Shown here piece by piece: positions 5,103 through 8,277 of a stretch of DNA of 32,000 nt (positions are counted from its first letter, which is position 1; every line of letters begins with the position of its first letter). Source of the stretch: a virus; IMG/VR virus record IMGVR_UViG_3300014964_000192, positions 1-32,000 of that record; one strand, written 5' to 3'. A model generated the notes under the pieces. It did no database searches. It was not told where the DNA came from and saw nothing but the letters and a program-made list of their open reading frames with translations. The translations under genes were made by a program, and so were the position numbers.

Positions 5103-5870
5103 ATGAGGACAACCGTGATACTCAACTTAAAGGGCGGAGTGGCCAAGACGGCCACCGCCGTCAATCTGGCGGCTATCCTGGCCAGCGACTACAAGAAAAC
5201 GGTGCTCCTGGTGGATGCTGACAGCCAGTGCAATGCTACCGAGTTTTTCGGCGGCGACCCAGTCAAGGGTGGTCTGGCGGATGCACTCCGCCACGACGGG
5301 GATGGCGGCCCGTTCGCAGCAGCCTCCATCCAAACCAGCAATTTCCCCGGGGTGGATCTGCTGTGCGGATCGGAGGACCTGATGGACCTGGACCTGACTA
5401 AGGTGGAGCTCCAAAGTGTGCGAGCAACAGTGCTGCGAGAGATGGTCCAGCGGTCGGCTGTCCGGGACCGATATGACTACTGCATCGTGGACTGCCCGCC
5501 GGCATTCAATGCGGCCAGCACCGCGGCACTGATTGCGGCAGACGATGTGATCATCCCCATTAAACTGGACGCCTTCGCTCTGCGGGGGATGGGGAACCTC
5601 ATGCGGCAGATCGCTAACATGCGGAAGATCAACCCGTCCCTGCGGCTGTCCGGCTGTCTGCCCACCATGTGGTACAACAGCCCTCTGATCGTGGAGGCGG
5701 AGAAAACGCTGGGAGCCAGCGGCCTGCCGATGTATCCCCACATCCGCCGCACAAACAAGGTGGACGCCATGACCTTTGCCCAGGAGCCGCTGCTGCTCAC
5801 CAGCCCCAGAAGCTCCGCCGGGATAGATTACCGTGAGTTTGTCAGAGAGTACATAGAGAGGGGGAACTGA
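5103..5870 (+). CDS. parA: ParA/Soj-type partition ATPase
   Basis: Deviant Walker A ILNLKGGVAKTATAVNLA. LLVDADSQCN. CIVDCPP. The 255-aa size is typical of ParA. Sits immediately upstream of parB. Confidence 0.92.
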   Translation: MRTTVILNLKGGVAKTATAVNLAAILASDYKKTVLLVDADSQCNATEFFGGDPVKGGLADALRHDGDGGPFAAASIQTSNFPGVDLLCGSEDLMDLDLTKVELQSVRATVLREMVQRSAVRDRYDYCIVDCPPAFNAASTAALIAADDVIIPIKLDAFALRGMGNLMRQIANMRKINPSLRLSGCLPTMWYNSPLIVEAEKTLGASGLPMYPHIRRTNKVDAMTFAQEPLLLTSPRSSAGIDYREFVREYIERGN

Positions 5871-5872
5871 GC

Positions 5873-7711
5873 GTGGCCGACAAAAAGGGCTTTGACCTGG
5901 CCAACCTGCTGAAAGATGTGCCCAAGTTGGACACCGCCGATGGCCGGGAGCAGATCGAGTACATCGACATCGGTCAGATTGAGAGTGACCCCGACAATTT
6001 CTACAATCTGGTTCAGCTGGAGGAGCTGGCCTCCAACATTGCTGTGGTGGGCCTCCAGCAGCCCCTTCGGGTGCGCACCTCGGAAACGGACCCGAAGAAA
6101 GTAGTCGTTGTGTCAGGCCACCGCCGCCAGGCGGCGCTGAAACTGCTAATCAAGGAGGGGCGCGAGGACCTGCGGGAGATTCCCTGCATCCGGGAACGCG
6201 TCACAGGCTCCGCCGCCCTCCAGGAGCTGCGGCTGATCTACGGCAACAGTGACACCAGGGTACTCTCCTCCGCCGAGCTGGCCAAACAGGCAGAGCGGGT
6301 GGAACTGCTGCTCTACCAGCTCAAGGAGGAGGGCTTTGAGTTCCCGGGCCGGATGCGGGACCATGTGGCCCAGGCCTGTAGAATCTCCGCCCCCAAGCTG
6401 TCCCGGCTCAAGGTCATCCGGGAGAATCTGATCCCGGAGTACATGAACCTGTTTGAGAAGGACAAGCTGCCTGAGCAGACGGCCTACGCCCTGGCCCGAC
6501 TGCCTGGAGACTTCCAACTCCGCATTTTTACCGCCTTGTCCGACAAGATTCCTAGAGGGGACAAGGTTGAAAAGGTACTGAGCAAATACAACGAGGGCTG
6601 GCGGTGGGAGCCGCAGCTGACCTGCCCTGACGGCAAAACTTGTAAGCGCGGGGACACGTTTCTGCGACGGGACTGCGAAGCCCCGGGTTGGGCGGGTTTT
6701 TGCGGCGGAAATACCTGCTGCCTGGAGTGTGATCAGGCAACAGCCAGATATTCCCCCTGTGAGCGGATGTGCAGCAAGGCCAAGGCCCAGCGAAAAGAGG
6801 AAGCCGACAAGAAAAAAGAGGAGGAGCACAAGCACCTGCAGAAGCAGGGCCGGAAGTGGCAGAAGGAGACCCAGGGCTATGCCAAGCGGCTCCTGCGTGC
6901 CATAGATGCCGCCGGGGTACCGGATGACGCCAAAATCAACTGGAGCTATTATGACGATATTCTTGTGTCTACCATCCGCCAGTGGGCCGCCGGCGAGTTT
7001 GACGATCCGGCCGATTGGCATGGTGCCCGGCTGATTCCGGGCAGATGCTACGGTGACCGTCTGGCAGAAGTCGCCAAGCTGTTGAAATGCTCCACCGACT
7101 TCCTGATGGGCCTGACGGAGGACATCCGCCCGGTGCCGGCCCAGGAGGAGCCGGAGGCCCCCGTGGCGGAGGACCCCGTGGAAGCCCTGGAGGAAGAAAC
7201 TGCTTCGGCGGATTCCTGGGATGATATTTCGGAGGTCCTGGACCATGTGGCGGCACCGGAGGAACCCGGCCGTCGGATTCGCTGGGAGAGCCGGGGCAGT
7301 ACACCGCCAGTAGACAAACTGATTCTTACTTATGAGCTGACAAATGCGGGACCTGTGTACCGGGCCGCAACATGGACCGGAAGCGTATTCCGGGCGCCTG
7401 GAACGTGGAAAGAGCTGACCGGGCTGCGATACACTTCTTGGATAGAGATACCATCCCCCGGCAGCGGCGAGGTCTGTGAGGTAGCCCCGCCCGAACAGGC
7501 AGAGGGCCAGCTGGTGATCTGTGGCTGGATGCCTGGTGGGACTTTCCCCTCGGAGCCTGGGGATGTGGTGGCTGAATGGGATCTTGAGGATGGAGGCCCC
7601 CTGTTCCGTTCCATTGGTTACTTTGATGGCGTTGACATCCGCCTGGGCCAGGGTGGAGTGAAACCGGATGGTAGACTGATACGCTGGTTTTCCTTGCCTC
7701 CGGTGGAGTAA
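5873..7711 (+). CDS. parB: ParB/Srx-domain partition protein with a long atypical C-terminal half (612 aa)
   Basis: GTG 5873 follows GAGGGGGA. N-terminal FDLANLL motif. ParB N-domain with arginine patch VVVSGHRRQAALKL. HTH AQACRISAPKLSRLKVI. A 9-Cys cluster follows (nt ~6621-6772), then a K/E-rich segment, an acidic linker and two W-rich C-terminal repeats. Confidence 0.85.
   Translation: MADKKGFDLANLLKDVPKLDTADGREQIEYIDIGQIESDPDNFYNLVQLEELASNIAVVGLQQPLRVRTSETDPKKVVVVSGHRRQAALKLLIKEGREDLREIPCIRERVTGSAALQELRLIYGNSDTRVLSSAELAKQAERVELLLYQLKEEGFEFPGRMRDHVAQACRISAPKLSRLKVIRENLIPEYMNLFEKDKLPEQTAYALARLPGDFQLRIFTALSDKIPRGDKVEKVLSKYNEGWRWEPQLTCPDGKTCKRGDTFLRRDCEAPGWAGFCGGNTCCLECDQATARYSPCERMCSKAKAQRKEEADKKKEEEHKHLQKQGRKWQKETQGYAKRLLRAIDAAGVPDDAKINWSYYDDILVSTIRQWAAGEFDDPADWHGARLIPGRCYGDRLAEVAKLLKCSTDFLMGLTEDIRPVPAQEEPEAPVAEDPVEALEEETASADSWDDISEVLDHVAAPEEPGRRIRWESRGSTPPVDKLILTYELTNAGPVYRAATWTGSVFRAPGTWKELTGLRYTSWIEIPSPGSGEVCEVAPPEQAEGQLVICGWMPGGTFPSEPGDVVAEWDLEDGGPLFRSIGYFDGVDIRLGQGGVKPDGRLIRWFSLPPVE
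5918..5934. repeat. Candidate parS-like dyad 1, GTGCCCAAGTTGGACAC (one arm mismatch), inside the 5' end of parB
   Basis: Read directly. Member of a 4-copy 8+1+8 palindrome family. Confidence 0.55.
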
Positions 7712-7716
7712 AAAAT

Positions 7717-7733
7717 GTGTCCAACTTGGACAC
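7717..7733. repeat. Candidate parS-like dyad 2, GTGTCCAACTTGGACAC (perfect), 6 nt after the parB stop
   Basis: Read directly. Embedded in the 31-nt repeat at 7712-7742. Confidence 0.55.
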
Positions 7734-7746
7734 CGAGGAGGAAACG

Positions 7747-8277
7747 ATGGAAACCTTTGAAAGACTGACGTGTCCTGATCCTATAGCTAGAGCATGGTGT
7801 GGGCCTCTGCGTCCCTGGGTGCCCAAAAAGAAAGCGTTTTCCCGCTTAGTCTTTTATGAGGATACCGGACTGGCTCCAGAGGAGATTACCACAGAAAAGC
7901 CGGCGTGTGTGTTCTACTGCAACCGCAAATGCAATCTTGATGGTGACTGGTGCCCCGAAGGGCCTGGGTGTCCGAAAGAGGTTGATTCTGAGACTGCAAT
8001 GCGATTGCTGATTCCGCCGTCCAACGCTCCTCTCACGCTGGAGGAACTGTGGCAAATGGACGGGGAGCCGGTGTGGCTATTGCCCATTCAGTTTGGTGTT
8101 CCTTATGGATATTGGGGTATTATTACAGAAATTTCGGACGACGGAGTGCGGCTGGCAACAAAAGAAAATCCATATGACTTCGGGGCGTCATCATTGTATG
8201 GAGTGACTTGGATTGCCTACCGCCACAAGTTGGAGGATGAGCAAAATGTGCCCAAGTTGGGCACCGAGGAGGAGTGA
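7747..8277 (+). CDS. Hypothetical Cys-rich protein (176 aa from ATG 7747)
   Basis: GAGGAGGA lies 4 nt before ATG 7747. The track start, GTG 7717, lies inside the dyad and has no SD. Cys cluster CVFYCNRKCNLDGDWCPEGPGCP. The C-terminal module PLTLEELWQMDGEPVW...YGVTWIAYRHK is shared with ORF 8419-9051. GC is lower, about 50% by eye. Confidence 0.65.
   Translation: METFERLTCPDPIARAWCGPLRPWVPKKKAFSRLVFYEDTGLAPEEITTEKPACVFYCNRKCNLDGDWCPEGPGCPKEVDSETAMRLLIPPSNAPLTLEELWQMDGEPVWLLPIQFGVPYGYWGIITEISDDGVRLATKENPYDFGASSLYGVTWIAYRHKLEDEQNVPKLGTEEE
8248..8264. repeat. Candidate parS-like dyad 3, GTGCCCAAGTTGGGCAC (perfect)
   Basis: Read directly. Embedded in the 31-nt repeat at 8243-8273, at the 3' end of ORF 7747-8277. 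Confidence 0.55.

Follow-up and report, generated by a model that had tools for sequence, protein, structure and literature searches.

A dispersed 17-bp dyad as candidate parS site of a ParA-ParB module among the replication genes of a virus

The stretch of viral DNA analysed here, called the window, comprises positions 1 to 32,000 of the IMG/VR record IMGVR_UViG_3300014964_000192 and contains a DnaB-type helicase gene followed on the same strand by genes for a ParA ATPase and a ParB-family protein, with 18 nt between dnaB and parA and 2 nt between parA and parB. Inside parB, behind it and once more in a capsid-family open reading frame (ORF), copies of a 17-bp dyad of 8+1+8 layout were observed, for which the pattern GTGYCCAASTTGGRCAC has exactly four matches in the window, as shown in Table 1, against an expectation of 0 copies from 100 dinucleotide-preserving shuffles. 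No further copy was found in the window with up to three mismatches allowed, and isolated half-sites were without enrichment. Three of the four dyads are perfect palindromes, and site 1 is the exception, being a hybrid of two half-site variants with C at position 4 and A at position 14. An initial annotation, made from the letters of this stretch alone, had already described the ParA-ParB module directly after dnaB as well as the four dyads, three of them perfect, and the gene calls and the pattern match bear it out on these points.

Table 1. Positions in the window of the DnaB-ParA-ParB genes, the four dyad sites and the two genes that follow parB
Feature	Position	Strand	Remarks
DnaB-type replicative helicase	3651..5084	+	Pfam DnaB_C 5.9e-70, DnaB 1.4e-26
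ParA, 255 aa, small Soj-type deviant Walker-A ATPase	5103..5870	+	Pfam AAA_31 9.9e-37, CbiA 1e-15
ParB-family protein, 612 aa	5873..7711	+	PHROG 27290 5e-129; PHROG 4715 'ParB-like partition protein' 9e-29
Dyad site 1, GTGCCCAAGTTGGACAC	5918..5934	none	hybrid; parB codons 16-21 (VPKLDT)
Dyad site 2, GTGTCCAACTTGGACAC	7717..7733	none	perfect; starts 6 nt past the parB stop
Dyad site 3, GTGCCCAAGTTGGGCAC	8248..8264	none	perfect; overlaps the last codons of gene 7747-8277
Dyad site 4, GTGCCCAACTTGGGCAC	16637..16653	none	perfect; N-terminal part of the capsid/protease-family ORF 16439-17986 (frame 0, NVPNLGT)
Variable 'insert' gene, 176 aa	7747..8277	+	between dyads 2 and 3; PHROG 25732 7e-11, C-terminal part only
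Small conserved CPxCG gene, 47 aa (MRILKPGDPCPCCGQP...)	8280..8423	+	always 3' of a dyad or dyad array in the closest clades

The ends of sites 2 and 3 are each followed, after 1 nt, by the Shine-Dalgarno (SD) sequence of the next gene, GAGGAGGA in the case of site 2, and the two sites share a longer unit of the form AAAATG-dyad-C-GAGGAGGA-N5-start, with the start codons ATG at 7747 and GTG at 8280. As the dyad unit precedes an SD and a start codon, the ORF after parB most likely starts at 7747 and not at 7717. Site 1 encodes residues that AlphaFold2 (AF2) predicts as part of a disordered linker (predicted local distance difference test (pLDDT) below 50, aa 15-25), so that a DNA site could be tolerated inside parB. 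A site homologous to site 4 is kept in two relatives, L123 (at 15381) and L132 (at 8500). Centred on site 4, within the capsid-family ORF, lies a larger imperfect inverted repeat (16615-16680) with an RNA fold of -35 kcal/mol (z = -4.8), the extended pairing of which is kept in L132 and not in L123.

The ParA protein lacks an N-terminal helix-turn-helix (HTH) and carries the Walker A motif KGGVAKT at aa 10-16 of the translation, in agreement with the deviant Walker-A signature KGGxxK[ST] of the ParA/Soj/MinD family that belongs to type-I ParABS systems. Its PDB matches are the Soj/ParA structures 6iub, 1wcv and 8ray (E 1e-22 to 1e-24), and its match to the NCBIfam profile ParA_partition, 3.9e-20, is under that profile's cut-off. 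The ParB protein likewise exhibits, by fold and by PHROG assignment, the order of domains of a type-I system, namely a ParB/Srx N-domain with a GHRR motif and then an HTH DNA-binding domain (about aa 25-240). In alignments with the PDB sequences of Caulobacter ParB and Spo0J, GHRR stands opposite GERR, and box II, G82-H-R-R-Q-A-A, is invariant and aligns with GERRxRA (GxxRxxA). The AF2 model has a mean pLDDT of 66, with 55-89 across the N-domain and HTH, and Foldseek matched it over about 220 columns to Noc (7nfu, 2.8e-8), ParB (6t1f and 6sdk) and KorB (8qa9, 4.5e-7, with 8qa8 also among the top matches), all at E 3e-8 to 5e-7 and probability 1.0. More than 4640 homologues of this ParB were found, and its N-terminus, MADKKGFDLANLL, is conserved among homologues. 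A basic K/R-G-L..L motif is the ParA-activating N-terminal motif of chromosomal ParBs, and the relation of MADKKGFDLANLL to it is one of resemblance only. The C-terminal 360 aa (aa 250-612, window 6620-7711) are unlike canonical ParB and have no Pfam match; they comprise a Cys-rich segment with nine invariant cysteines (C251-C300), where AF2 pLDDT is below 50 and which may bind metal, then a long helix, a second HTH-like segment with an XRE-like 'STDFLMGLT' HTH tail, an acidic linker and a beta-rich C-terminal domain.

The occurrence of the dyad in other genomes was assessed from both directions, by the motif and by the protein. A search of IMG/VR contigs with the dyad alone retrieved at least 118 stretches, compared with 18 for a composition-matched control palindrome, all of them single-copy. 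Among the 118 dyad stretches listed, tblastn with window proteins detected ParA in 30, ParB in 24 (29-88% identity), DnaB in 22, the Rep initiator in 20 and the DnaD-like protein in 19, and structural proteins in just 0-4, which argues that the dyad travels with the replication/partition module and not with one virion type. Searches of GTDB genomes with ParB peptides gave 21 loci with ParBs 34-91% identical to that of the window, all from metagenome-assembled genomes (MAGs) of Oscillospiraceae or of unclassified Bacillota/Firmicutes; of the 19 loci that reach the 5' end of parB, 18 have the dyad 21-66 nt past the parB start, and most of the loci that include the 3' end have it 7-11 nt after the parB stop (about a dozen, among them L121, L124-L129, L134 and L137). 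Among viral sequences, the peptides R[ED]QIEYI and KL[AS]RLKVI fetched 80 ParB loci, of which 75 contain the dyad, taken as at most one mismatch to GTGYCCRANTYGGRCAC, and 65 have it no more than 150 nt from the start of the ParB match; these loci, 842 kb altogether, hold 175 dyads and 1 control palindrome. Both genes occur in 93 loci, and in 92 of these ParA is the immediate upstream neighbour of ParB. The dyad recurs in hundreds of phages related to that of the window, which is a phage of a gut bacterium. Non-coding tandem dyads at a spacing of exactly 37 bp precede the CPxCG gene, at the position of site 3, in several relatives, with four copies in L122, three in L120, and two each in L119, L123, L129 and L136.

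Two further observations were made in other phages. In a lower-GC lineage (L042, L050, L056, L066, L070, L072, L074 and L114 of IMG/VR), a long perfect hairpin, cccgGTGTCC..GGACACcggg, is built around the 17-mer and flanked by an A-run and a T-run; it resembles a bidirectional terminator, and the stretches fetched for this lineage gave no ParB match. Just right of the position that corresponds to the window end, the relative L141 encodes at 5466-6596, among tail and lysis genes, a 376-aa protein with three sigma-70 region-4/HTH-like repeats, and has dyads at 6484, in the 3' end of that gene, and at 7621, before the next gene cluster.

Differential patterns of variation were observed for the dyad among the clades. 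The family consensus is GTGYCCRA-N-TYGGRCAC, with a centre that is mostly C or G, and whole clades carry GTGTCCGAWTCGGACAC, GTGCCCGAWTCGGGCAC or GTTCCCGARTCGGGAAC, in which symmetric double changes at positions other than 4 and 14 leave the palindrome perfect. In most clades one variant (CCAA/TTGG, CCGA/TCGG or GTT..AAC) occupies both the coding and the non-coding sites of a genome and follows the ParB lineage; the Cormatin group is an exception, with CCGA/TCGG at the parB 5' site and CCAA/TTGG at the remaining sites. The paired change at positions 4 and 14 had been read in the initial annotation as compensatory, a claim that fails on counting, since 38 unique sites of the close clade include 18 hybrids where 18.5 are expected if the half-sites vary independently; on the sense strand these hybrids are C.A in 15 cases and U.G in 3. 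The pattern fits a dimeric DNA-binding protein that would read two half-sites and accept Y at position 4 as well as R at position 7. Across ParBs of about 30% to 91% identity one location of the dyad does not change, namely the 5' end of parB or the parA-parB junction, along with the 3' flank of parB, and ParB is, on this comparative evidence, the best candidate for the binder of the dyad.

A related dyad, GTGTCCCCSGGGGACAC, flanks parAB in the clostridial plasmids pCP13 of C. perfringens, where it is dispersed over the plasmid, and pCS1 of P. sordellii, the annotated type-I ParBs of which have about 32% identity to the window ParB (aa 9-227). pCP13 (54 kb, 25% GC) contains GTGTCCCC(S)GGGGACAC seven times, always between genes; one copy is found 50 nt ahead of parB and another behind the gene that follows, while pCS1 has one copy on each side of parAB, and phage Saumur has GTGACCGAATCGGACAC in the gap between parA and parB. 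The pCP13 family and pCS1 thus share with the window a homologous ParB, an adjacent ParA and a 17-bp 8+1+8 dyad with the outer arms GTGYCC..GGRCAC (GTGTCC..GGACAC), but the inner arms are CC.G.GG in the plasmids and AA.S.TT in the window, and pCP13 and pCS1 are true plasmids. Neither the window dyad nor the pCP13 dyad was found in literature searches, and for the pCP13 branch a different, 117-bp 'putative parS' has been proposed (PMC4459074).

The lifestyle of the element was judged from its relatives. No integrase is present within the 32 kb by Pfam and PHROG, just as first annotated, and a minus-strand ATG ORF of 549 aa at 30300-31949, considered as a hidden integrase, was rejected, as it has no Pfam or PHROG match and lies antisense to a 631-aa plus-strand ORF of the tail-fibre region that continues past the window end; the 549-aa ORF is most likely spurious. 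The relative L122, 94% identical in nucleotides to window 264-3543, encodes a tyrosine recombinase about 3.4 kb left of the point that matches the window start, and recombinases with Phage_integrase and SAM-like domains stand 7-10 kb upstream of parB in L120, L122, L124-L126, L128 and L100, those of the other six being 69-95% identical to the L122 type. Several relatives lie inside long scaffolds (L120, 368 kb; L137, 283 kb; L127, 162 kb; L134, 140 kb), and in the prophage of Colidextribacter OB.20 (L141), with a 91% identical ParB, the endolysin gene is followed by the host genes ftsH, hpt and tilS. Flavonifractor phage Cormatin has a matching DnaB-ParA-ParB module and four dyads, with no annotated integrase in its deposited 35.4-kb genome, and is reported as an integrated, inducible, cos-packaging prophage at 1,128,657-1,164,096 of the F. 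plautii YL31 chromosome (PMC10197239). The suggestion that the element persists as a low-copy episome, or phage-plasmid, is accordingly not supported: the relatives are not free replicons that do without integration, and the partition module does not take the place of an integrase in them.

The identification of the dyad as candidate parS of the adjacent ParAB, first proposed from the window alone, is strongly supported by the comparative data, namely its association with ParB, its conserved positions, the arrays, the variants that follow the lineages and the related dyad of the plasmids, all of which point to a cis-acting, cognate-specific palindrome beside parAB. The dyad is probably a parS-like site that a dimer of the adjacent ParB would bind through its HTH, forming with ParA a type-I ParABS-like module, and this module most likely forms part of the block of replication genes in a temperate Oscillospiraceae myovirus. 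ParB would nucleate at the dyads, which lie within the beginning of parB, directly behind it, ahead of the next conserved gene and, in a few cases, in the late region, and by analogy with ParB, Noc and KorB it would probably load as a nucleotide-dependent clamp and spread; ParA, stimulated through the N-terminal peptide of ParB, may then position the ParB-DNA complexes on the nucleoid. The tight spacing after dnaB on the same strand makes expression of parAB with the early replication genes likely. Because the relatives are integrated and have an integrase, and because parAB is packed with dnaB on one strand, the substrate is most likely the phage genome in its circular, replicating form, which arises upon infection, excision or induction or exists in a carrier state, and maintenance of a permanent plasmid prophage by this module is unlikely. 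ParB may also influence the expression of genes adjacent to its sites, as KorB does. The binding by ParB, its nucleotide dependence, the interaction with ParA and the biological role are inferred here by analogy. More tentatively, the ParBs might represent a large, undescribed lineage (more than 4600 homologues in Oscillospiraceae/Lachnospiraceae prophages and clostridial plasmids) with one ancestral site, GTGYCC-N5-GGRCAC. In integrating prophages ParABS would then serve not for plasmid maintenance but as a KorB-like clamp, loaded at sites within coding sequences and at gene junctions, that would organise, silence or position the phage genome when it passes from integration to replication or back.

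Several observations weigh against a partition site read by ParB. A profile check of 5103-7711, proposed with the initial annotation, was positive for ParA and gave a divided answer for ParB, which matches the PHROG ParB-like family and stays under the threshold of Pfam ParB_N (20.3 bits, cut-off 26.3); the Cormatin homologue is above that threshold (34.6 bits), and ParB_N is precomputed in most homologues. Box III of ParB reads YGN..R, with N125 and R129 invariant, and the Glu of ENxxR is not conserved, which makes CTPase activity uncertain. DnaB, the DnaD-like protein and Rep co-occur with the dyad almost as often as ParB does, so that another factor of the replication module would also fit the association, and the dyad may be spread more widely in host genomes than in the viral and ParB-fetched loci counted here. 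Many sites lie 1-10 nt 5' of an SD and read like terminators on the opposite strand, on both strands in pCP13, and an RNA-level or transcriptional role may coexist with partition. Finally, in the only experiment on the plasmid branch, a mini-replicon of pBCNF5603 that contains parAB was unstable (PMC4459074).

The second reading to be taken seriously is a KorB-like regulatory role, which is compatible with partition. It involves the same protein on the same site, and only the main role differs: ParB on dispersed dyads would chiefly control neighbouring transcription by silencing or as a roadblock, maybe at a distance as a sliding clamp, with partition secondary or absent. As the principal function this is possible rather than probable. 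The dyads are dispersed at gene junctions 5' of the SD of conserved genes, among them terS and a head-tail adaptor gene in Cormatin and relatives, and one L122 site adjoins a consensus TTGACA-17-TATAAT promoter; the 7-9 intergenic copies throughout pCP13 resemble the OB operators of RK2 (about 12), and the odd length and the mostly C/G centre are also those of OB. KorB structures are among the top fold matches, and with integrated relatives a plasmid-maintenance role is not needed. However, the near-constant retention of ParA beside ParB and the likeness of the ParB N-terminus to a ParA-activating peptide suggest that ParA and ParB work together as a machine, no promoter-like sequence adjoins window sites 2 and 3, packed phage genomes put any intergenic site near an SD, and no KorA-like partner turned up, though no search aimed at KorA was made. 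That lysogens keep the element as a low-copy episome by ParABS, without integration, would agree with the lack of an integrase in the window and in the Cormatin deposit and with the plasmid members of the ParB family, pCP13 and pCS1, yet it is improbable here and for the relatives already largely refuted, given the recombinases, the 140-368-kb scaffolds, the junction with host genes and the chromosomal location of Cormatin; the tight same-strand parAB-dnaB order would moreover suggest an early lytic block that is repressed in the lysogen.

Binding of the dyad by some other protein of the module, as an origin iteron or operator, has little likelihood; the candidates are the Rep initiator (10039-10800), a CI/Cro-type HTH protein (665-1144) and the CPxCG protein. 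The Rep, DnaD-like and XRE-HTH genes each accompany the dyad in 19-24 of the 118 listed loci, the 37-bp tandem arrays resemble iterons, and the CPxCG gene always follows a dyad in the close clades, but iterons are usually clustered direct repeats at one origin and not dispersed palindromes, and the single position that is conserved over 30-90% ParB divergence belongs to the parB ends. The CPxCG protein was rejected as binder because its gene occurs in only 18 of 102 ParB loci, and a CI/Cro operator because the divergent repressor/cro region of L122, where it would be expected, is without a dyad and because dyads persist across unrelated immunity regions; the replication gene of pCP13 is unrelated (PCP63, PMC4459074), yet a related dyad is present there. 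A recombinase core site was also discarded, as tyrosine recombinases use an overlap of 6-8 bp and serine recombinases one of 2 bp, neither of which a 1-bp centre would suit, and as several copies in the same orientation would delete DNA. An mRNA hairpin (7-bp stem, 3-nt loop) 5' of the SD, acting in translation, stability, processing or termination, is very unlikely as the explanation. In its favour, only 1 nt separates sites 2 and 3 from an SD, the pairing survives the symmetric double changes, and the antisense strand, or in pCP13 either strand, shows a hairpin followed by a T-run; against this, hybrids are as frequent as independent half-sites predict and are mostly C.A on the sense strand, folding energies at sites 1-3 are no better than shuffled (z = -0.1 to -0.9), Rfam gave no match for the dyad, sites also lie in ORFs far from start codons and in arrays, and an identical 17-mer across unrelated genes and genomes is not required of a generic hairpin. 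An RNA hairpin or known RNA family was therefore rejected as the main explanation on the C.A hybrids, the folding energies and the Rfam result. It is scarcely credible, lastly, that the dyad is the incidental DNA of a short linear peptide motif, for instance one docking ParA. All four window sites lie in ORF frame 0 and would encode (D/N)V(P/S)(K/N)L(D/G)T, close ParB homologues keep V16, L19, D20 and T21 almost without change, and frame 0 shows a modest excess among viral sites (41/28/24). The differences among the window dyads are nevertheless all non-synonymous, with the wobble positions invariant, many sites are intergenic or in other frames, and whole clades change the peptide by their symmetric double changes, from VSKLDT to VSDSDT (KL to DS) or to VSESDT, with the palindrome perfect. 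The 37-bp arrays cannot encode a repeated peptide since 37 is not a multiple of three, and these arrays, the spread of frames in viruses, the peptide changes of clades and the invariant wobble positions together ruled the motif out.

Compared with known systems, the preferred reading of a ParABS-type module has close counterparts in F SopA/SopB/sopC and P1 ParA/ParB/parS, which likewise combine a Walker-type ParA, an HTH ParB with a ParB/Srx N-domain and palindromes just downstream of parB. The F sopC consists of 43-bp units with an internal dyad, and to the tandem arrays of type-I plasmids correspond the 37-bp units of the relatives here. Unlike F and P1, the module has a new site sequence, one site inside the 5' coding end of parB, further sites in late genes, a small Soj-type ParA, a ParB with a long unrelated C-terminal half, and an integrating prophage as carrier. 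The phage-plasmid N15, whose prophage is a linear plasmid that has a protelomerase and does not integrate, carries a SopAB system with four dispersed palindromic centromere sites. N15 shares with the present case a phage ParAB with single palindromes scattered over the phage genome, including regions of development genes, but here the relatives are integrated with a tyrosine integrase, and proteins and sites are unrelated in detail. The KorB operator OB of RK2, TTTAGCSGCTAAA, is an odd-length palindrome with a central C/G in about 12 copies. RK2/IncP KorB-OB, with IncC as ParA, resembles the system here in pairing a ParB-family protein with a ParA partner and in its dispersed, mostly intergenic odd-length sites, at least six of which occur in a 40-kb relative; it differs in the site sequence and in being a conjugative plasmid and not a phage, the pCP13 branch excepted. 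Mycobacteriophages with ParABS, such as RedRock, are also temperate phages with ParA, ParB and nearby parS repeats (PMC7157519). In them parABS replaces the integration cassette and the prophage is a plasmid, whereas here integrase and ParAB occur together and the relatives are integrated. The srpMRC genes of the SXT/R391 integrative and conjugative elements and Soj of PAPI-1 are partition-like systems of integrated elements. Together with AlpAC of the prophage CGP3, a segregation-type system of an integrated element (PMC4446434), these resemble the present case as integrated elements that keep a segregation-type system acting on the excised or replicating form. The motors of CGP3 and SXT are actin-like, unlike the Soj-type ParA here.

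The genes beside the dyads showed further features. The insert gene is absent in relatives in which parB is followed directly by a dyad and the CPxCG gene, and in the window it is bracketed by near-identical 31-nt junctions, AAAATG-dyad-CGAGGAGGA, at 7712-7742 and 8243-8273; given those relatives, the dyad units may serve as homology for swapping in extra genes. The proteins encoded at 7747-8277 and 8419-9051, which flank the CPxCG gene, share a C-terminal domain (PHROG 25732; 7e-11 and 4e-7) and look like a local paralogue pair. Two initiator-type genes flank the DnaB-ParA-ParB genes, a DnaD/primosomal-like one at 2750-3673 and one at 10039-10800 (PHROG 3584), and each accompanies the dyad in about 20 of the 118 motif-retrieved loci, among the matches listed. 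The A-rich 5' flank of the dyads (AAAAT) is conserved, and the minus strand at 7712-7733 and 8243-8264 reads as a hairpin and T-run, like a terminator; at the pCP13 sites (L237/L239) A-runs and T-runs stand on both sides, like bidirectional terminators.

The module is thus of a known kind, the ParABS type, and what is new is the sequence of its dyad site, which is not in the literature searched; unusual are the site embedded in parB, the dispersed sites in late genes, the co-occurrence with an integrase and the long Cys-rich C-terminal extension of ParB. The combination calls for caution with the annotation shortcut by which parAB in a phage means a plasmid prophage, as parAB and an integrase occur together here and the relatives are integrated. 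The hypothesis is testable in organisms that can be grown, such as F. plautii YL31 with Cormatin, from the mouse community OMM12, or C. perfringens carrying pCP13, and the dyad could serve as a ParB/parS DNA label in Clostridia without cross-reaction with the host system. If ParB binds the dyad, a centromere or operator would be defined for a very large ParAB family that extends over phages of the human and mouse gut and clostridial toxin plasmids.

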